64,000 bases of DNA from the sequence record PZ386959.1. One strand, written 5' to 3'. Origin of the DNA: a phage. Within the stretch, counting starts at the first letter, position 1. Every line of letters starts with the position of its first letter. The translations under genes and the position numbers were made by a program. Positions 11,259 through 64,000 of this stretch are shown one piece after another. The notes below the pieces were generated by a model. It ran no database searches and had not been told where the DNA came from. It worked only from the letters and a program-made list of their open reading frames with translations.

Positions 11259-19277
<8,019 letters not shown>

Positions 19278-19279
19278 TA

Positions 19280-20467
19280 ATGGCGGTAGGTGAAATTCAA
19301 ATTAGTGCCTTGCCTCAAGCAGCCTTACCAATTGACCTTAGTGATATCTTCCATCTTAAGCAGGGTATTGAGGATAAGAGATGTACTCTTGAGCAATTAC
19401 TTGCTCCACACTCAAGCCTAAGAAATAACCCTCATGGTGTTACTAAAACACAAATTGGTTTAGATAATGTTATTAATGCTCTTCAGTTAGTTGCTGCAAA
19501 TAACTTATCAGATGTTGTTAATGTAGCTGAGGCAAGAGCAAATCTACAGATTATGTCTTCAGAAGAGGTTAATAACCTTGTTCAACAGCATATTCAGGAC
19601 AAGAGCAACCCACACAATACAACTAAGGCACAGGTAGGGTTGAGCAATGTCCAGAACTGGACAACATCGAACCTTTATAACGAAGATGCAGATAAGTATG
19701 CTACAGCAAGAGCAGTAAATAACTTGTACAAGGCTGTTCAGGCTTCTTATCCAGTAGGTACTATCCATCTTTCTATGAACTCTGCAAACCCTTCTACATA
19801 CTTAATTTGTGGAGGAACTTGGGAGTTAGTTTCAAAAGGTAGAGCATTGGTTGGTTATGACTCTGACACAAGACCAGCAGGTTCTGTATTTGGTGCTTCA
19901 ACTGTTACTTTGTCAGTTAATAACATGCCTCAACATTCACACTCCGTGTCTCTTAGTGGTGGTGGTCATGCTCATAATGCAACTGTGTCAATTTCAGCTT
20001 TTGACTATGGAACTAAGACTACCAACTCTTTTGACTATGGAACTAAGACCACTAACACAACTGGTAACCATAACCATGTTGGTAGTGGGTCAACAAGTTC
20101 TGCTGGTGCTCATAACCACAGATTGACCTATGAATCAGGTGGTGGTTTATCGGAAAGACCTGCAATGGTTTGGTCTTCAAGGAATGACCAATCATGGTAT
20201 TCAGCAGATGCTGTCTGTGAAGTAGCTGGTGCACACACTCACTCTTTCAGTGTTACCACTAACACAACTGGTAACCACAACCATACGGTTGGTATTGGTG
20301 CTCACAGCCACACAGTTGGTATTGGTTCACATACACACAATGGTACTGTAACAGTTTCTTCTTCTGAGCATACGCATAGCGGGAACACTAATAGTGTTGG
20401 TGGTGGACAAGCTTTCAACATTGAGCAGCCATCCTTTGTACTGTATGTATGGCAGAGAACAGCTTAA
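19280..20467 (+). CDS. tail fibre protein with C-terminal His-rich collar-type domain
   Basis: C-terminal region has repeated HxH/HxHxH segments (HSHSVSLSGGGHAHNATVS, NHNHVGSG, AHTHSFSV, AHSHTVGIGSHTHNG) and the ending QAFNIEQPSFVLYVWQRTA typical of phage tail collar domains; contains a 30-nt tandem duplication. Confidence 0.65.
   Translation: MAVGEIQISALPQAALPIDLSDIFHLKQGIEDKRCTLEQLLAPHSSLRNNPHGVTKTQIGLDNVINALQLVAANNLSDVVNVAEARANLQIMSSEEVNNLVQQHIQDKSNPHNTTKAQVGLSNVQNWTTSNLYNEDADKYATARAVNNLYKAVQASYPVGTIHLSMNSANPSTYLICGGTWELVSKGRALVGYDSDTRPAGSVFGASTVTLSVNNMPQHSHSVSLSGGGHAHNATVSISAFDYGTKTTNSFDYGTKTTNTTGNHNHVGSGSTSSAGAHNHRLTYESGGGLSERPAMVWSSRNDQSWYSADAVCEVAGAHTHSFSVTTNTTGNHNHTVGIGAHSHTVGIGSHTHNGTVTVSSSEHTHSGNTNSVGGGQAFNIEQPSFVLYVWQRTA
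19999..20058 (+). repeat. 30-nt tandem duplication inside tail fibre 1
   Basis: TTTTGACTATGGAACTAAGACTACCAACTC followed by TTTTGACTATGGAACTAAGACCACTAACAC, encoding FDYGTKTTNS twice. Confidence 0.8.
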
Positions 20468-20476
20468 TTTCTTTAC

Positions 20477-20497
20477 AGGGGCTTGATAGCCCCTTTT
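20477..20497 (+). terminator. weak hairpin/terminator between the two tail fibre genes
   Basis: Stem GGGGCT / AGCCCC with loop TGAT followed by TTTT; short U-tract. Confidence 0.35.
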
Positions 20498-20513
20498 AAG
20501 AGGAAAATTTATA

Positions 20514-22901
20514 ATGGCAGATTACAAGTTGAGTGAATTAAACTCAATTGATACAATCCGTTCAGACGACCTTCTTCATGTCAGAGTTAAAAAGAGACCT
20601 GAAATGCTGGGTGATGAAGACCGTCGAATGACCTATCAAGACTTCTTAGCATCTTTTAAACTTGAAAGATTTGTTCAGATTGCTGGTAGTACTATGACGG
20701 ATGATTTAGGGATTGTTAAGCTACTTTATGGTGGTAAAGTAGTATTTAACCCAACAGGCTCTTCTGAGATTAATATTGGGGACGTTTTAAAGACTTTTAA
20801 AATTAACGCAAATGGTCTTAAGCTAACTGTTGCAGATGCTTCAAGGTCGGCAACTGTTTATCATACTCTGAATAAGCCAAGCCCTAGTGAGCTTGGGATG
20901 AGAACTAATGAAGAGAATGACACGAGATACTCAAGATTAGCTGCAAATAACACCTTTAGAGGTACTCAAGCTATTCTCTCTGACAATGAAGCCCTTATTG
21001 TTAAGAATATCACACAAGGGATGCCACTCTATATTCGTGGTCAAGATGCAGATGGCACCAACAGATGGTATCTAGGCAATGATAATAAAGGCACAGACAA
21101 CCTTGTTTTAAAAAACGTTAAATCTGGTGCATACGTAGCGATTTTAGCTAACCTAATCTCTGTGAATAAATCAATTCAAATCACTGGTCAAGTTCAACCT
21201 TCTGATTGGACTAACTTAGATGCTAGGTATTTTACTCAGACAGCAGCTAATCAGAGGTTTGCACAGTTAGCTGGTGATAATACCTTTAGAGGCGTGAATA
21301 CATTTAATCAAATCCTATCAATTGAGACGAATAGTGCAGCCTTAAGGTTAAAAAATACTGTAGCTAATGGTGCACTGTACATTAAAGGTGAAAGTAATGA
21401 TGGCTCTGGTAAGTGGTATGTAGGTAATGGTGATAATACACCTGCCGTATTAATTCACAACTATACATATGGGTCTAATCTTAGACTCGACAATGGTTAT
21501 GTTGAGGTTAATAAGCAACTTAAAGTCGTTGGTCAAGTTCAACCTTCTGATTGGACTAACATTGATTCTAGATACATTCCAGCGGCTACTTTGAGTAATC
21601 TTGCTAAACTAAGTGATGTAAACACTTTCAGGTCTGTACAGGTTATCAATCTGAATGGCTCATTATTACAGCTAAAGAACACTACACAAGACAGAGAGCT
21701 ATACTTTGCTGGTCATAATGCTGATGGTGTTAGAAGGTGGTACATTGGTAATGGGGAACCATCCAACCCAACAAGGTTTACTATCCGTAACGACAGAACT
21801 GCAACTACGCTTTATATGCAAGATGATTTCTTGTTGGATAAAAATGTCAGAATTACTGGTCAAGTTCAACCTTCAGATTTCTCTAACTTAGATGCTAGAT
21901 ATTTCTTGAAAACAAAACTATTAAACCAATCTTTAATGACAAGGACAGCTAATAGACTGGATGACCCATCATCATTCAACAAAGATTATTCAGGATTTGT
22001 AAGAAACAACGCTATTGAGCAGGGTCTGAAAGATTTAGCCATCCATGTAGCACATTCTGCTGGTATTGCTCATGCCAGAGGTATCGCTTTTACATATGGG
22101 TCTAAAGGTCTTGATGTCTTCACATACGCTTATGGGTCAGATGGAGCATATGTTGGAGAGGCACAGTTGTATTCAACGGTATTTAAACCAACCCCTTCAG
22201 ATATTGGTGCATACACTAAAGTAGAAACTGACCAGAAAATTGCAACAGCAATTAGTGACTCTACAGACCTTAATAAAATCTATCCAGTAGGCATTGTAAC
22301 GTGGTTTAACAGTAATGTTGACCCTAACACAGCGTTGCCTGGGTTAACTTGGACGTACCTGAACAATGGTGTTGGTAGAACTATCAGAATCGCAGCAGCT
22401 AACGGTTCAGATGTTGCTACAACTGGTGGTTCAGATTCTGTAACATTAGCTGTTGGTAACTTACCATCACACACTCACAGCTTCTCTGCTACCACTTCAT
22501 CTTTTGATTATGGTACGAAGAGCACTAATAGTACTGGTGGTCACACCCACACTGTAAGTGGTACAACAAGTGCTGCGGGTAACCATGCTCACCACTTAGG
22601 TCTGCTATTGGTTAATGGTGGTGATGCTCAGTACGGTTATACCACTATTGGTAACAATAAGACAAGAACTCTTGACTGGCTTGACAGAACTGATAACAAG
22701 TTCCCTAACACTAACACAACTGGTAACCATACACACACATGGTCTGGTACTACAAGCAACACTGGCGCTCACACCCACTCTGTAGGTATTGGTGCTCACA
22801 CCCATACAGTTAGTGGTAACACTGGTAGTACAGGTTCTGGTTCAGCATTTAGTGTTACTAACCAGTTCTATAAGTTAATGGCTTGGGTAAGAACTGCTTA
22901 A
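20514..22901 (+). CDS. tail fibre protein (long), with triplicated internal module and C-terminal His-rich collar-type domain
   Basis: Three copies of a module containing ITGQVQPSDWTNLDARYF / VVGQVQPSDWTNIDSRYI / ITGQVQPSDFSNLDARYF; C-terminus has HTHSFSATT, GGHTHTVSG, NHAHH, AHTHSVGIGAHTHTVSG and ends ...FYKLMAWVRTA. Confidence 0.65.
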   Translation: MADYKLSELNSIDTIRSDDLLHVRVKKRPEMLGDEDRRMTYQDFLASFKLERFVQIAGSTMTDDLGIVKLLYGGKVVFNPTGSSEINIGDVLKTFKINANGLKLTVADASRSATVYHTLNKPSPSELGMRTNEENDTRYSRLAANNTFRGTQAILSDNEALIVKNITQGMPLYIRGQDADGTNRWYLGNDNKGTDNLVLKNVKSGAYVAILANLISVNKSIQITGQVQPSDWTNLDARYFTQTAANQRFAQLAGDNTFRGVNTFNQILSIETNSAALRLKNTVANGALYIKGESNDGSGKWYVGNGDNTPAVLIHNYTYGSNLRLDNGYVEVNKQLKVVGQVQPSDWTNIDSRYIPAATLSNLAKLSDVNTFRSVQVINLNGSLLQLKNTTQDRELYFAGHNADGVRRWYIGNGEPSNPTRFTIRNDRTATTLYMQDDFLLDKNVRITGQVQPSDFSNLDARYFLKTKLLNQSLMTRTANRLDDPSSFNKDYSGFVRNNAIEQGLKDLAIHVAHSAGIAHARGIAFTYGSKGLDVFTYAYGSDGAYVGEAQLYSTVFKPTPSDIGAYTKVETDQKIATAISDSTDLNKIYPVGIVTWFNSNVDPNTALPGLTWTYLNNGVGRTIRIAAANGSDVATTGGSDSVTLAVGNLPSHTHSFSATTSSFDYGTKSTNSTGGHTHTVSGTTSAAGNHAHHLGLLLVNGGDAQYGYTTIGNNKTRTLDWLDRTDNKFPNTNTTGNHTHTWSGTTSNTGAHTHSVGIGAHTHTVSGNTGSTGSGSAFSVTNQFYKLMAWVRTA

Positions 22902-52639: not shown

Positions 52640-52910
52640 AGAGAAGTGGGAAATTTTACCATTAGTGAGTGAAGGCGGTAACGGTTGTGAGATGTACATG
52701 ATACGTGGTCATGTACCAGAACCAATTGCACTTGAGATGGTAAACAATTTTACAGATGGCTCTTACAAAGATTTAGGAGAGCCAACTATAAAGCATCAAT
52801 GGGTCAAACCTGTACCAGACAGCACAGGTAACTGTAGTGTACTTTATCACGTTGTAGACCCTGCAAAATGCAAATCTGCAATGGCAGTAACAAACGTAAC
52901 TTTTGATTGA
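52632..52910 (+). CDS. hypothetical protein
   Basis: 92-aa ORF overlapping both neighbours. Confidence 0.3.
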   Translation: MAKEKWEILPLVSEGGNGCEMYMIRGHVPEPIALEMVNNFTDGSYKDLGEPTIKHQWVKPVPDSTGNCSVLYHVVDPAKCKSAMAVTNVTFD

Positions 52911-53803
52911 GAGAGAAAACTATGAAAACTGTTATTGAAGTCGTTGTCACCGCACAAGAGAAATTCTTCCACACAGAAAAATTTAATATCATCCAATTCC
53001 CATCTGGAGAAATTGGTGGAAACTTCTCTGAAGAATTTGTTAAGTTTACTGAGCGTAATGCTGGTAAGATTGACAATGTTATACTTACTGTGCAGGGATA
53101 TGATAAAGATACTCTGTTTGCATTAGCTTTGGCTAAGGATGCCGTTGACAGTCTTGTTCCATATAAGTCAGCGATGAAAACCGTTGTTTTCGGGTTCTTA
53201 CCAAATGCTCGGTATGACCGCCATATGTTCAAAGGTGATTCAGCAGCACTGAAAGCTTTTGCCAACCTCGTTAATGCAATGGGTTTTGATGCAGTATGTG
53301 CTCTTGACCCTCACAGTAATGTTGCAGAAAACTTATTTAAGTGCTTTCAGAGCATGAAGCAAAAAGATGTAGCAGTACACTTTGCAAGTGACCCACGCAT
53401 TGATTTCTTGGTAGCCCCAGATGCAGGCGCAGCTAAGAAGACTGAAGAGGCTGCTAAAGAGGTGGATAAACCATATATCACAATGTCTAAAGTGCGCAAT
53501 CTTAAGACTGGAGAAATCACTGGTATGCGAATCCTTGACGATGTTGATTTGACCGATAAAACTGTCATGATTCTCGATGATATCTGTGATGGTGGTCGAA
53601 CCTTCATAGAGGCAGCTAAACATCTTCGTGAAGCAGGTGCAAAACGTGTGGAACTCTATGTAACTCATGGCATTTTCTCTAAAGGGGTTGAAAACTTACT
53701 TGACAATGGTATTGACCATATCTACACTACAAACTCTTTAGGAGAAGCTAAAGACCGTGGCTTAACACATTATGCCCAAGTTACTGTAATTACCATTGAT
53801 TGA
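52907..53803 (+). CDS. ribose-phosphate pyrophosphokinase (Prs) family protein
   Basis: Matches Prs blocks: FGFLPNARYDRH (cf. FGYARQDR), LDPHSN (cf. DLHA), and the PRPP-binding loop VMILDDICDGGRTFIEAAKHLREAGAKRVELYVTHGIFS (cf. VLVDDMIDTGGT...THPIFSG). Confidence 0.8.
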   Translation: MREKTMKTVIEVVVTAQEKFFHTEKFNIIQFPSGEIGGNFSEEFVKFTERNAGKIDNVILTVQGYDKDTLFALALAKDAVDSLVPYKSAMKTVVFGFLPNARYDRHMFKGDSAALKAFANLVNAMGFDAVCALDPHSNVAENLFKCFQSMKQKDVAVHFASDPRIDFLVAPDAGAAKKTEEAAKEVDKPYITMSKVRNLKTGEITGMRILDDVDLTDKTVMILDDICDGGRTFIEAAKHLREAGAKRVELYVTHGIFSKGVENLLDNGIDHIYTTNSLGEAKDRGLTHYAQVTVITID

Positions 53804-53849
53804 AACTTTATAGGGGCTTCAAAGCCCCATTTTGAGAGAGATTAAAAAG

Positions 53850-55631
53850 ATGACTAAATCACTTTATGCAGTACCAGCAGGTTTAAACGCAGATGCTTAC
53901 AAATCTGGTCACATTTACCAGTACCCTAGTGCAACAGAGTACTTGATGTTTAACCTGACACCACGTAGTGACAAATGGTTTAACAGTCCCTTAGCAATTG
54001 ATGGTGTGGTTGCTTTTGGTATTCAACGTTTTGTTAAAGATTACTTGATAGACCACTGGAACGCCACCTTCTTTGAACGTGACAAAAAAGAAGCAATTGA
54101 CGAAATCTTAGAAGTCATGAACGGTGTTCTGGGTAAAGATGCTATTGGTCGAGAACATTGGGAAGCACTCCATGACTTAGGTTATCTTCCAGTTGAAGTA
54201 TACGCTGTAGAAGAAGGCACAGTTGTCCCTATGCGTGTACCAATGATTGTCTTCCAGAACACTGTCTCAGGTTTCCATTGGGTAGCGGGGTATCTGGAAG
54301 ATGCTTTCTCTGCTGAGATTTGGAAGGCTTGTACCATTGCAACTATTGCATTGCACTACAAACGTATTTGTAAGAAGTGGTCTGACCTTACTTGTGACAA
54401 TGACTTACATTTGCCTTATCAGTGCCATGACTTTGCTATGCGTGGTATGTCTGGCTTTACTGATGACGCATTTAATGCTGTAGGTCACTTAACCAGCTTT
54501 AAAGGGACTGATAGCTTCCCTGCTGTATACACGGCTAAACGCATCTATGGGCAGTCCTACCCAATCTCTGATATTGGTAGTTCTGTACCAGCCACTGAAC
54601 ACTCTGTAATGTGTGCAAACATTGCTTGGGAAGGTGGTAATGAGTTGATTGAAGAAGAAAGACGCTTTAAAGGTGAGTTACAAACCTTCCGTCGTTTCTT
54701 AACAGAAACTTACCCAACTGGTATTGCAAGTGTTGTTTCAGATACTTATAACTTCTGGAGAACTGTATCAGTTATATTACCAGAACTTCGTAAAGAGATT
54801 ATGGAACGTGATGGTAAACTGGTAATTCGCCCTGACTCTGGAGACCCTGTACATATTGTCACAGGTTATAAAGCAATCCACTTAGAATGTGCTAAGAAGG
54901 CTTATTACGAGCACCTAAGCAAGCTGGAAGCTAGTGACACAATGTTGAATGCTGTTCTGAACATGAAGCTTGAAAACATCAACTATGGCATTGCTGGATG
55001 GCTACTGTCAGAAGGATACGAAATGGTTGTTGACAGAGAAGACTTTGAAGTTGCTGATACAGTGATGTTGAAAAATGCTTATATGGTTGGTTCTGCAAAC
55101 GTTGTAACACGTCCTGTAGCTGAGATTGATGGAGCTATTAAGACACTGTACAACATCTTTGGTGGAGCTATTAACTCTAAAGGGTTTAAGGTACTGGATG
55201 AGCATATCGGCCTTATCTATGGTGACTCTATCACTCTGGAACGTGCAAACGAAATCCTGAAGCGTCTGTATGAAATGGGTTTTGCAAGCTCTAACGTAGT
55301 GTTTGGTGTAGGCTCTTACACTTACCAGTACATGACTCGTGACACCTTTGCATTTGCTGTCAAAGCAACTCTTGCAAGCATTGGTGGTAAAGAGATTATG
55401 CTTGCAAAAGACCCTAAAACAGATAGTGGTGTTAAGAAATCTGCCTTTGGTGGTGTAGCACCTATGTGGGATGGTGATAAGCTGAAAGCTGTAGATGGCT
55501 ATGGATTCCAGAGTTTTGCAGATGTACTTGACCACCCAGCTTGTGCTTTACGTTTAGTCTTTAGTGACTCTGAGCAGTTTGGTTACACAACTCTTGGTGA
55601 TATTCGAAATAATATTGACAAGCAGCTTTAA
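53850..55631 (+). CDS. nadV: nicotinamide phosphoribosyltransferase (NadV/NAMPT) family protein
   Basis: N-terminal ADAYKSGHIYQYP matches the NAMPT TDSYKVTHYKQYP signature; about 593 aa; start set at the ATG (MTKSLY) rather than the upstream TTG used by the track. Confidence 0.8.
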   Translation: MTKSLYAVPAGLNADAYKSGHIYQYPSATEYLMFNLTPRSDKWFNSPLAIDGVVAFGIQRFVKDYLIDHWNATFFERDKKEAIDEILEVMNGVLGKDAIGREHWEALHDLGYLPVEVYAVEEGTVVPMRVPMIVFQNTVSGFHWVAGYLEDAFSAEIWKACTIATIALHYKRICKKWSDLTCDNDLHLPYQCHDFAMRGMSGFTDDAFNAVGHLTSFKGTDSFPAVYTAKRIYGQSYPISDIGSSVPATEHSVMCANIAWEGGNELIEEERRFKGELQTFRRFLTETYPTGIASVVSDTYNFWRTVSVILPELRKEIMERDGKLVIRPDSGDPVHIVTGYKAIHLECAKKAYYEHLSKLEASDTMLNAVLNMKLENINYGIAGWLLSEGYEMVVDREDFEVADTVMLKNAYMVGSANVVTRPVAEIDGAIKTLYNIFGGAINSKGFKVLDEHIGLIYGDSITLERANEILKRLYEMGFASSNVVFGVGSYTYQYMTRDTFAFAVKATLASIGGKEIMLAKDPKTDSGVKKSAFGGVAPMWDGDKLKAVDGYGFQSFADVLDHPACALRLVFSDSEQFGYTTLGDIRNNIDKQL

Positions 55632-59762: not shown

Positions 59763-59778
59763 TAAGTAATTTCTTAAA

Positions 59779-59862: not shown

Positions 59863-60411
59863 ATGAAGAAATTGATTCTAGGTTTGTGCTTAATGTTTAC
59901 AGCACACTTATCTTATGCAGTTGACTGCCCAGAGCTATCAATTAGCCAAAAAGTAAACATGTTAAAAGCTTACCAGTATGGTGAGAATAACATGGGTAAA
60001 GGTTGGGGTATCACTCTAGCTGCTATAGCCTTACAAGAGTCAGAGTTAGGTCTGAAGGTAGAGAATAAAAAGACACATGATTATGGTATTTTCCAGAATC
60101 ACTTGAAGACTGTTGTAAAGCGTAACAAAATTAGTCCTAATGTGGCTAAAAAGAAACTCTTAAGAGACTTTGACTATGCTGCAAAGGAAACGCACAAAGA
60201 ACTTGAATTTTGGACAAAGGTGCATGGTCAGCCAAAGTCAAAGAAAACTTTACAAAAAGTTTTAGCATCATATAATGCTGGGTATTCGTACAGAATCCCT
60301 AAAGCTAAAAAATATTCTCAAGATGTCTATAACAACATGAAAGTTATCGCTCAATGTGAATTTGCAACAAACATTTCTAAGGTAAATCATGAAAAAATTA
60401 AGAAAGTTTGA
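59863..60411 (+). CDS. secreted lytic transglycosylase (SLT domain); candidate endolysin or periplasmic murein hydrolase
   Basis: Signal peptide MKKLILGLCLMFTAHLSYA; SLT-like motifs AIALQESELG, DYGIFQ and AYNAG-like LASYNAGYSY. Confidence 0.55.
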   Translation: MKKLILGLCLMFTAHLSYAVDCPELSISQKVNMLKAYQYGENNMGKGWGITLAAIALQESELGLKVENKKTHDYGIFQNHLKTVVKRNKISPNVAKKKLLRDFDYAAKETHKELEFWTKVHGQPKSKKTLQKVLASYNAGYSYRIPKAKKYSQDVYNNMKVIAQCEFATNISKVNHEKIKKV

Positions 60412-61084
60412 TGAAGTACTGTGTCATGCTTATGACTTACATCCTCATGAGTTAGGTCTTGATTCCTGTGTATGGACTCCAGAACAGTGTAGGGATTTTG
60501 AAGACACTGCAAGAGAAGTTGTATGTTCACTTGAAGAGTTTCACACATCAGAGCCAATTGTGAATGTTGTAGATAAAGAGACTGGACAAACTATAGGGGT
60601 AAGTCGTGATAGTTTAGTCATAGTCAATAAAGACCTTGTAGAAAAAGGTAACCTCATCTTAGCAGATATTGATGGTGTTCTTACAAATTTTAATCACGAA
60701 GATTGCTCAACGGAATTGACTGATGGGTCATTCTCACAGTACACTAATCTTCTTGACTCTGTAAGAGCAAAACCAACGTATGTTTTTAGTATTATTGATG
60801 CAATTGCTAATCATGCTGCCATTGGACTCTTGACAGCGAGAGGTGAATCTCAGAGAATACCTACTGAGATGTTTTTAAGGCATAACATAGAGCATGATTA
60901 CTTGCTTTTTATGCGTGGTTTTGGAACTAACTCTATAAGTGCAGAAAGTTTGAAAGTGAGGATGATTCAGTCTTGCATTCTTCCTTACTTTAATATAGTA
61001 TGCTTTATAGAAGATACAGAGAAGAATGTTCAGAAGGTAAACAGAATCCTTCCACACATTAAAACTATGTTAGTTAAACATTGA
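60389..61084 (+). CDS. HAD-superfamily hydrolase-like protein
   Basis: Motif LILADIDGVLTNF resembles HAD motif I (DxDGT/V); otherwise unassigned. Confidence 0.35.
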   Translation: MKKLRKFDEVLCHAYDLHPHELGLDSCVWTPEQCRDFEDTAREVVCSLEEFHTSEPIVNVVDKETGQTIGVSRDSLVIVNKDLVEKGNLILADIDGVLTNFNHEDCSTELTDGSFSQYTNLLDSVRAKPTYVFSIIDAIANHAAIGLLTARGESQRIPTEMFLRHNIEHDYLLFMRGFGTNSISAESLKVRMIQSCILPYFNIVCFIEDTEKNVQKVNRILPHIKTMLVKH

Positions 61085-61571: not shown

Positions 61572-61600
61572 AGGCTCCTTCGGGAGCCTTTTTCATTTTA
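61572..61600 (+). terminator. rho-independent terminator
   Basis: Stem AGGCTCC / GGAGCCT with loop TTCG, followed by TTTTTCATTTT. Confidence 0.65.
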
Positions 61601-62718: not shown

Positions 62719-62920
62719 AAAGACACGGAAACTCATCCGGTCAGCAGTATTCATTGGAAGAAATGAAGTCATCCCGTTTACAGCAAACGATGTGATAGCC
62801 TACAGGAAAAACTTAGTATTTAGTGATTGCTTGCGTGGCTTCATCTCCCAACCGTTGGAAGACTTTAAAAGCCGTTGTGGTAAAGGTATCATCATTCAAG
62901 AGGCAATTATCAATGGCTGA
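62693..62920 (+). CDS. hypothetical protein
   Basis: 75-aa ORF. Confidence 0.3.
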   Translation: MRVILARDKKTRKLIRSAVFIGRNEVIPFTANDVIAYRKNLVFSDCLRGFISQPLEDFKSRCGKGIIIQEAIING

Positions 62921-63113
62921 CTTCTGCAAAGACTGTTCTATAGAAATGTTTGGACGTGATACAGGTGACTTAAAAGGTCTTATCACTGAAGATGACTTTA
63001 AAGCTGGCTATGCAATGCCAGTAATCTGTGAAGGTTGTGGATGTATCTGGGTAGACCACGAAGGACAGCGTGTAAAACCTTCAGAAGATAAAGAGTCTTG
63101 GGAGAGATGTTAA
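62913..63113 (+). CDS. small zinc-binding protein
   Basis: Start set at MADFCKDCS; two Cys clusters (CKDC ... CEGCGC). Confidence 0.35.
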   Translation: MADFCKDCSIEMFGRDTGDLKGLITEDDFKAGYAMPVICEGCGCIWVDHEGQRVKPSEDKESWERC

Positions 63114-63899
63114 ATGGGTATTGTAAAAATCATCAATGGTGATATCTTTGCAGCATTTGATAAAGGTAAGTTTGATGTCATCGGTCACGGTTGCAACTGT
63201 ATGAATTTAATGGGTGCAGGTATCGCTGACAAGATTTCTAAACTTTACCCAAAAGCATATGAGACCGATACAGAAGTTTATCTATATGCAGGTGGTATAG
63301 GACATAAACCCTGTGAGGATTTACTAGGTAATATCTCTGTAGCACGTTTAGAACAAGGCCGTATAGCTAACCTCTACACTCAGCTTAAAACTGGTAAAGA
63401 TGCCAGATACAGTGCTTTAGAGTCATCTTTGAAGAAACTTAACAGGTACTGTGAAGTCAATCAGTTGAAGAAAGTTGGTTTACCTATGATTGGTGCAGGT
63501 ATCGGTGGACTTGACCCTCAAGCTGTCACCGTTATCATCAATCAGGTGATGAAGAGTGTAGATGTGTATCTATATGTCTATGAAGGAGAGATGTACCACA
63601 AGTTACGCTCAGGTTGGAAGAACTACTGTGAACCAGAATACTTTGCAGGTGTAGTTGTGTTCACGGATAATGCAGTTACCCTCTTCAGACGAAGAAAAGG
63701 TAAGATACATCAAAGTAACCCTCCGGTTGAGAAGATGTCTCTAAGTAACGCTCTAGTTACCCACCTGTCGAAGAGCAATCACAGAATTGCAGTAACATTT
63801 GGCAGTGATGCAGATGCTTATGCCTATGCAAGAACTGATGAGGATATTGAGTTAATCTTCTCTTCACCAGAGCTTACCTTCTTAGACGCAAAGAACTAA
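63114..63899 (+). CDS. macro-domain protein (ADP-ribose binding/processing) with C-terminal extension
   Basis: N-terminal IINGDIFAAFDKGKFDVIGHGCNCMNLMGAGIADKI and later GLPMIGAGIGGLDPQAV resemble the two conserved macro-domain blocks (GDIT...AIVNAAN..GGGV and ...P.I.TG..G). Confidence 0.5.
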   Translation: MGIVKIINGDIFAAFDKGKFDVIGHGCNCMNLMGAGIADKISKLYPKAYETDTEVYLYAGGIGHKPCEDLLGNISVARLEQGRIANLYTQLKTGKDARYSALESSLKKLNRYCEVNQLKKVGLPMIGAGIGGLDPQAVTVIINQVMKSVDVYLYVYEGEMYHKLRSGWKNYCEPEYFAGVVVFTDNAVTLFRRRKGKIHQSNPPVEKMSLSNALVTHLSKSNHRIAVTFGSDADAYAYARTDEDIELIFSSPELTFLDAKN

Positions 63900-64000
63900 G
63901 AAACTTCGTAGTATATTCACAATAGACTAAGCCTTTCTTATCTGGTAAATTTTTCAGGTAAGGAGGGCTTTTTCATTTCAGATTTGTGCAGGTAGAGTTC

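Follow-up and report, generated by a model that had tools for sequence, protein, structure and literature searches.

Why would a phage that carries two genes for rebuilding nicotinamide adenine dinucleotide (NAD+) also encode a macro-domain protein with a second domain of its own? This question is raised by the gene at positions 63114..63899 of sequence record PZ386959.1, a 64,000-nucleotide stretch of DNA that we refer to as a whole as the window. The window derives from a Felixounavirus, that is, a FelixO1-like myovirus of the kind found on E. coli and Salmonella. The best answer that we can offer, and one to which we give about an even chance, is that the macro domain would act as an Adpp-type phosphatase of ADP-ribose 1''-phosphate (ADPR-1''-P), feeding ADP-ribose (ADPR) to the NARP1 pathway for NAD+ reconstitution that the phage itself appears to encode. 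Such an arrangement would amount to a dispersed version of the pathway known as NARP1-AP. It was already known that phage macro domains are common, with 41% of myoviruses carrying one (PMC9503650), and the gene has been annotated before as a phosphatase or macro-domain gene. The interest of the gene is in the proposed link to NARP1 and to the host defence aRES, the orphan domain at the C terminus, and the exchange of this one gene between alleles.

The macro domain and its distribution

The gene and its parts are as follows.

63114..63899, plus strand: macro-domain gene; 261 amino acids, ATG start and TAA stop; a macro domain followed by an orphan C-terminal domain
63114..63584, plus strand: macro domain, amino acids 1-157, Poa1p/Adpp-like (Pfam PF01661, fold matches to TARG1 and DarG, homology to the Adpp of Vibrio phage Quinn)
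63186-63188, 63195-63197 and 63381-63383, plus strand: codons in the macro domain for H25, N28 and Q90, respectively
63585..63896, plus strand: C-terminal domain, amino acids 158-261; a helix, six beta strands and a helix; an orphan found only in Ounavirinae macro proteins

A first-pass annotation, made from the letters alone, had called a macro-domain protein from two conserved motif blocks followed by a tail. Profile searches and structure prediction confirm this call. Both blocks are present (GDI..VIGHGCNCMNLMGAGIA at amino acids 9-38 and GLPMIGAGIGG at amino acids 122-132), and some 105-110 residues extend beyond the macro domain, which ends at about amino acid 157. The Pfam Macro family PF01661 matches amino acids 25-141 with 31.8 bits (E 1.5e-7), well above its gathering cut-off of 22 bits, and the match spans profile positions 2-117 of 118. 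A phmmer search against the PDB returns TARG1/OARD1, SARS-CoV-2 Mac1, DarG and Poa1p. An AlphaFold2 model built with 19 homologues reaches a pLDDT of 85.5 and a pTM of 0.86, and when its N-terminal 157 residues are submitted to Foldseek they match TARG1 (4j5s; E 9e-10, TM on target 0.82-0.85) and the DarG of Thermus (5m3e; TM 0.82). The ADPR-binding loops MGAGIA (amino acids 33-38) and GAGIGG (amino acids 127-132) are invariant throughout the two-domain family.

There are 258 records in the searched phage collection that carry the macro protein at full length. In about 200 Felixounavirus records it is 92-97% identical to the window protein, and the 4 kb of DNA around the gene are 95-97% identical to dozens of Felixounavirus-type phages. 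These phages have hosts among E. coli, Salmonella, Shigella and Citrobacter, and many of the roughly 258 carriers are of a type studied for biocontrol or therapy of Salmonella and E. coli. The relatives are annotated as 'putative phosphatase', 'macro domain-containing protein' or 'hypothetical protein'. Family phrog_335, itself labelled 'phosphatase', covers the macro protein over its full length (E 1e-111).

Relationship to the phage phosphatase Adpp

The most informative relative is Adpp, the macro protein of Vibrio phage Gary (KNV71_gp137), which is encoded between the genes Adps and Namat. In vitro, Gary Adpp turns ADPR-1''-P into ADPR. With the Adps-Adpp-Namat operon, aRES, a RES-domain defence that makes ADPR-1''-P, is overcome. 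The mutation used to inactivate Adpp is H24A (primer and construct, Table S4), and Poa1p is named as its closest functionally characterised homologue (all from bioRxiv 10.64898/2026.01.28.702374). The Adpp of Vibrio phage Quinn is near-identical to that of Gary. By BLASTP, amino acids 3-154 of the window protein are 28% identical to Quinn Adpp (E 9e-15), with H25 placed opposite the essential H24. Other phages of Table S1 give tblastn matches at 29-36% identity, namely PaGz-1, B09_Aci05, JSF10 and phiPsa-like phages.

The resemblance extends to the residues expected to matter for catalysis. H25 corresponds to H24 of Adpp, N28 to a conserved Asn, and Q90 to the Gln of the N-x-Y-x-Q motif of Adpp. 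The motifs HxCNC..MGxGIA, N-x-Y-x-Q and GLPxIGxG are held in common, as is membership of the phrog_335 clade, at 28-36% identity. All three residues are invariant in 19 two-domain homologues, and across 48 sampled members of the clade the triad is universal except in one lineage, Kolesnikvirus. By these sequence criteria, the macro domain is a member of the phage clade that contains Adpp.

In a neighbour-joining tree of the clade, computed without support values, the two-domain proteins of the Ounavirinae form a single branch and the NARP1-adjacent Adpps are scattered on either side of it. Since the Ounavirinae branch is flanked by known Adpps, the tree suggests that one activity may be common to the whole clade. 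Two differences from Adpp are also apparent. The window protein has 261 amino acids, compared with about 150-170 for Adpps, because the orphan C-terminal domain has been added. In addition, the window gene lies 7.5 kb, or about 14 genes, downstream of NARP1 and in a separate putative transcription unit.

NAD+ reconstitution genes in the same genome

Like the genomes that encode Adpp, the window carries Adps and Namat, at the following positions.

52922..53803, plus strand: Adps ('Prs-like'), ADPR-pyrophosphate synthetase, the first NARP1 enzyme; the mechanically called open reading frame (ORF) begins at TTG 52907
53850..55631, plus strand: Namat ('NadV-like'), nicotinamide ADPR-transferase, the second NARP1 enzyme; the mechanically called ORF begins at TTG 53832

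The Prs-like and NadV-like ORFs that had been noted upstream of the macro gene (52907..53803 and 53832..55631) do exist, and the distance given for them of about 8 kb is a fair description of a gap of 7.5 kb. The starts published for FelixO1-type phages are the internal ATG codons at 52922 (MKTVIE, Adps) and 53850 (MTKSLY, Namat). Adps converts ADPR to ADPR-pyrophosphate, and Namat joins this product with nicotinamide to form NAD+ (bioRxiv 10.1101/2024.02.11.579819). The supplement of that study (Osterman et al. 2024, bioRxiv 10.1101/2024.02.11.579819) assigns the orthologues from FelixO1, wV8, UAB_Phi87, Moogle and Mushroom to Adps and to 'Adps-associated' Namat. The window Adps and Namat are 38% and 37% identical, respectively, to their counterparts in Quinn, and the window Namat keeps the ATEHSVMC motif, including the His that is mutated in Gary Namat H243A. 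Judged by this homology, the two genes encode the NARP1 enzymes for NAD+ reconstitution, and not an ordinary phosphoribosyl pyrophosphate synthetase with Nampt.

The association between these genes and the macro gene is not peculiar to the window. In all Ounavirinae-type loci that include enough upstream DNA, those from IMG/VR among them, Adps and Namat are located 7-10 kb upstream of a two-domain macro gene. The order Namat, rIIA, rIIB, lysin, HAD protein and macro gene, with other genes interspersed, is kept across several lineages. It persists even in metagenomic relatives whose macro proteins are just 33-36% identical to that of the window, and the co-occurrence itself holds at 33-45% identity. 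Erwinia phage phiEa104, a Kolesnikvirus, carries the Prs and NadV genes as gp114 and gp115 and a 260-amino acid 'phosphatase' as gp016.

Together these features point to the following mechanism. Host RES-domain defences such as aRES split NAD+ with phosphate to yield nicotinamide and ADPR-1''-P, which Adps cannot use. By taking off the 1''-phosphate, the macro domain would supply ADPR, from which Adps (52922..53803) and then Namat (53850..55631) would rebuild NAD+. The phage would thus hold, in dispersed form, the three genes of the published NARP1-AP pathway. The macro fold, the clade, the essential His and the co-occurrence with NARP1 are observed; we infer the substrate of the macro domain and its coupling to NARP1, as well as any part that the C-terminal domain might play. 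More generally, the first-pass annotation had proposed that the phage may act on ADP-ribose and its derivatives in two or more reactions, and enzyme work published for close relatives (NARP1 and Adpp) supports this. We also count in favour of the Adpp-type reading that the cloned aRES systems came from E. coli, Klebsiella and Enterobacter, sources close to the host range of phages like that of the window.

If this mechanism is correct, it would predict resistance to NAD+-depletion defences that produce ADPR as well as to those that produce ADPR-1''-P. NARP1-AP would also be commoner than has been published. A macro gene was reported within two genes of NARP1 in 15% of NARP1 phages (bioRxiv 10.64898/2026.01.28.702374). 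That survey looked no further than two genes from NARP1, whereas in the window 7.5 kb lie between Namat and the macro gene. The Ounavirinae were therefore left uncounted, and a whole subfamily would have been missed.

Several observations weigh against this proposal. The macro gene is outside the NARP1 operon, separated from Namat by 7.5 kb that hold rIIA, rIIB, the lysin, a HAD protein, the spanins and small ORFs, with terminator-like sites at 59776 and 61572. It consequently lies beyond the limit of two genes from Adps or Namat that was applied by Osterman et al. (bioRxiv 10.64898/2026.01.28.702374). The nearest solved structures by overall sequence and fold are TARG1 and DarG, rather than Poa1p, and no characterised Adpp carries the extra C-terminal domain. 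Furthermore, in the orthologues from Kolesnikvirus the essential His is replaced by Gln (IAQGCNC), even though the NARP1-type Prs/NadV pair is kept. Two such orthologues, both from Erwinia phages, are

L006, 8483..9265: Kolesnikvirus orthologue with Gln at the His position
L039, 9998..10780: Kolesnikvirus orthologue with Gln at the His position

Finally, there is Tk.4, the most abundant relative of the macro domain in enterobacterial phages. It is 35-37% identical over amino acids 3-160 and has the same His/Asn/Gln triad, but it is a single-domain protein of 159 amino acids whose gene is found between vs and tk. One example is

L008, 2498..2977: Tk.4 of Shigella phage CM8 (Tequatrovirus)

Among the T4-like loci sampled, neither Adps nor Namat was seen at a distance of up to 10 kb from Tk.4, and the activity of the clade is therefore not always tied to NARP1. 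One may then ask what task this enzyme would have in T4-type phages in which no NARP1 genes are seen nearby. A literature search found no published function for T4 Tk.4 and no specific study of the FelixO1 macro domain. It is because of the non-operonic position, the Tk.4 loci, the TARG1 and DarG structures and the Gln of Kolesnikvirus that we place our confidence in the Adpp-type reading no higher.

A further group of loci is seen in uncultured phages. Three sequences from IMG/VR (L066, L067 and L073, one of them 247 kb long) have single-domain macro genes at 39% identity. In each, a Namat-like gene directly precedes the macro gene, and an Adps-like gene is found some 4-6 kb away. By their gene arrangement these are probably further loci of the NARP1-AP type.

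De-ADP-ribosylation as an alternative

The first-pass annotation had suggested, as an example, that the protein reverses ADP-ribosylation of DNA or protein. In its most explicit form, this alternative holds that the protein is a DNA de-ADP-ribosylase of the AdfM, DarG2 or TARG1 type that clears the marks of a DarT2-like toxin from phage DNA, with the C-terminal domain being comparable to the toxin-binding domain of DarG. There is a phage precedent in AdfM of phiKZ-like phages (phiKZ gp104), which is DarG2-like and strips the ADP-ribose added by DarT2 from DNA, using the catalytic residues N23 and K78 (PMC13309987). TARG1 and DarG are the top fold and profile matches of the window protein, and DarG is its best match in both NCBIfam and PADLOC (E 1.9e-12 and 3e-13, respectively). 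In having a C-terminal extension behind its macro domain the window protein also resembles DarG2, and the replacement of alleles described below would fit a gene caught in an arms race.

The active site nevertheless argues against it. The catalytic Lys of these enzymes (DarG K80, AdfM K78, TARG1 K84) aligns to the invariant Q90 or to the adjoining residue, and no conserved Lys is present near Q90 in the aligned homologues. A profile alignment to TARG1 sets K84 opposite Q90 and D125 opposite G131, such that both members of the TARG1 catalytic dyad K84/D125 are replaced in the window protein, by Gln and Gly. AdfM has Ile, Asn and Lys where the window protein has H25, N28 and Q90, and in BLASTP the window protein and phiKZ AdfM are only 23% identical (E 3e-4). 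Removal of ADP-ribose from DNA or protein is one of the less well supported readings, because the catalytic Lys is an invariant Gln.

The DarG match itself does not help this alternative. The DarG model scores the window protein at 47.2 bits, compared with an equivalog cut-off of 250 bits, and covers model positions 12-153 of 338 only. There is therefore no DarT-binding domain. As a control, we scored proteins of known type with the same model. Five proteins of the Adpp or Tk.4 type gave 28-49 bits (34-49 for the NARP1-linked Adpps and 28 for Tk.4), whereas AdfM gave 137.8 bits. The score is thus generic to the clade, and since known Adpps score alike and AdfM far higher, we rejected the match as a lead to an anti-DarT role. 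We also tried PHROG membership as a discriminator and rejected it, because Adpp, Tk.4, AdfM and the window protein all belong to phrog_335, and PHROGs therefore cannot separate the rival functions.

The window protein compares with the known macro proteins as follows. It shares with AdfM and DarG the TARG1/DarG/Poa1p-like macro subclass, phrog_335, and the Asn that is N22 in DarG (PDB 5M3E from Thermus and 5M3I from M. tuberculosis) and N28 in the window protein. It departs from them in the change of Lys to Gln, in its lower DarG score, and in having no DarT-binding domain. TARG1/OARD1 (PDB 4J5R/4J5S) is the best fold match, with TM values of 0.82-0.85. With yeast Poa1p (PDB 6LFQ-6LFU), the enzyme that defines ADPR-1''-P phosphatase activity, it has the N-terminal His/Asn motif region in common, although the profile of the two-domain family aligns to Poa1p over amino acids 1-60 only (E 6e-5). 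The fold of the C-terminal domain, moreover, matches nothing in the PDB. For these reasons we consider a de-ADP-ribosylase unlikely.

RNA repair and immune signals

A second alternative keeps the chemistry of the Adpp-type reading and changes its purpose. The protein might be an ADPR-1''-P phosphatase, or clean up ADPR derivatives in general, that works on by-products of RNA repair (Appr>p and, from it, Appr1p, arising through KptA/Tpt1 together with a 2H phosphoesterase), in the way that Poa1p serves tRNA splicing in yeast, and not for NARP1. Among homologues of known function, it is after all Poa1p that has been named as closest to Adpp. Genomic context has linked phage macro domains to RNA repair (PMC9503650), and the Tk.4 loci sampled without NARP1 genes within 10 kb would be accommodated. 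There is also a suggestive gene 2 kb upstream, in a neighbourhood that is kept in distant relatives.

60389..61084, plus strand: HAD-type gene, annotated as 'polynucleotide kinase' in relatives; DxDG motif (LILADIDGVL)

However, inspection of its product by eye did not reveal a P-loop kinase motif, and the Pfam family HAD_PNKP gives only weak or faint matches, in relatives of this protein. As judged from its motifs, it is probably a phosphatase-only protein, whose substrate might be an RNA end or else a phosphorylated derivative of ADPR. No genes for Tpt1/KptA, a 2H phosphoesterase or an RNA ligase were seen within the 28 kb inspected, and the co-occurrence with NARP1 is strict across the Ounavirinae wherever it can be seen. 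We consider a role in RNA repair about as unlikely as a de-ADP-ribosylase.

Least likely of all is that the protein is a sponge or hydrolase for an ADPR-derived immune signal (His-ADPR, or the 2'/3' cyclic-ADPR isomers of Thoeris) or removes ADP-ribose from protein or RNA: macro domains in general bind ADPR derivatives, the type II Thoeris effector detects His-ADPR through a macro domain, NARP1-adjacent enzymes that convert immune signals to ADPR exist (RyDEP), and a fast-evolving extra domain with allele swapping would fit an anti-defence role, but no homology to known sponges or signal-degrading enzymes was found, the conserved His/Asn/Gln set matches that of the tested phosphatase Adpp, and the signal-degrading partner published for NARP1 is a RyR-domain protein and not a macro domain. 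Degradation of cyclic-ADPR signals, one form of the earlier suggestion that ADPR-derived immune signals are degraded, has no specific support.

The orphan C-terminal domain

The second half of the question concerns the residues beyond the macro domain. Amino acids 158-261 are predicted by AlphaFold2 to form a helix, six beta strands and a helix, giving a beta-rich domain of about 105 residues. This domain has no Pfam match when 16 family members are searched, no sequence-profile match in the PDB, and no fold match in the PDB for its model. A Foldseek search of BFVD returned the Suspvirus orthologue only, and phmmer searches of 1.84 billion representative proteins found relatives confined to its own family. 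There is likewise no stand-alone PHROG for the domain, since only the tail of phrog_335 itself was matched. The tail of the phiEa104 protein matches the same positions of the phrog_335 tail as that of the window protein, and because of this agreement the domain seems to be common to the Ounavirinae.

Despite its lack of relatives, this is a real domain under purifying selection. Among 20 distinct close alleles, the ratio of nonsynonymous to synonymous substitution rates (dN/dS) is 0.20 for the C-terminal domain and 0.07 for the macro domain. The C-terminal domain changes at roughly double the rate of the macro domain: identities are 43-52% compared with 76-80% among sister genera, and 15-20% compared with 40-54% among distant relatives.

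Two possible relationships of the domain were considered and rejected. A fused aRad1, the inhibitor that binds aRES and is recognised by a WxEGY..TGQ loop and a TYWGC motif, is contradicted by an hhalign probability of 0.1%, and an hmmsearch of all reading frames of the window for an aRad1 homologue gave nothing below E 0.09. The C-terminal extensions of other long members of the clade (L056, L080, L086 and others) proved to be unrelated to the window domain.

Our guess is that the domain binds protein, be it a factor of the host or another copy of itself during assembly. Perhaps the whole protein is a bifunctional counter-defence factor, in which the macro domain detoxifies the product of aRES for the benefit of NARP1, and the C-terminal domain either binds directly to and blocks a host defence protein that targets NAD+ or performs ADP-ribosylation, or docks onto Adps or Namat. 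There would be a parallel in DarG, which also joins an enzyme to a binding domain, here with a fold not seen previously. We regard this elaboration of the Adpp-type reading as quite improbable in its particulars.

Replacement of the macro gene by a distant allele

Two sequences from IMG/VR (3300045988_024527 and 2974574300_000001; L036 and L037) are 94-100% identical to the window at the nucleotide level from Namat to position 63130. Over 63131..63899 the nucleotide identity is only 45-65% and the protein identity 42%, and homology resumes downstream. The macro gene alone has been swapped for a distant allele, and the left breakpoint is located at the start codon. Replacement of a single gene in this manner is a pattern common for counter-defence genes. 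This reading carries the caveat that the region 3' of the macro gene is mosaic in general. Given the orphan domain and the gene-specific replacement, the macro gene is likely an arms-race locus, and these same two features offer a route to a new binding partner.

The order of the small genes 3' of the macro gene differs between phages. In phage heid (L001, approximately 16800..21550), this region, which corresponds to DNA past the end of the window, holds many copies of a sequence of about 60-120 nucleotides, positioned between small genes. The repeated sequence may serve as a promoter or terminator module and thereby drive the mosaicism.

Transcription unit and flanking features

The features that flank the macro gene most closely are as follows.

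62913..63113, plus strand: small ORF, 66 amino acids, four cysteines arranged as CxxC...CxxC (MADFCKDC...CEGCGC); TAA stop overlapping the ATG of the macro gene (TAAATG)
63929..63970, plus strand: hairpin with a T tract, resembling an intrinsic terminator, 30 nucleotides 3' of the macro stop codon; found by consensus scan only

The macro gene is preceded by the spanins and four small ORFs, and it appears from the arrangement of these elements to be the last gene of a putative unit that starts past the terminator-like site at 61572..61589. The 66-amino acid ORF is near-unchanged in Suspvirus-like and Mooglevirus-like loci, despite macro proteins at 63-69% identity. Its product may be a partner of the macro protein, or its translation may be coupled to that of the macro gene. 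In one distant relative (L003), a different ORF of 63 amino acids, also with a CxxC...CxxC pattern, occupies the equivalent position overlapping the macro gene.

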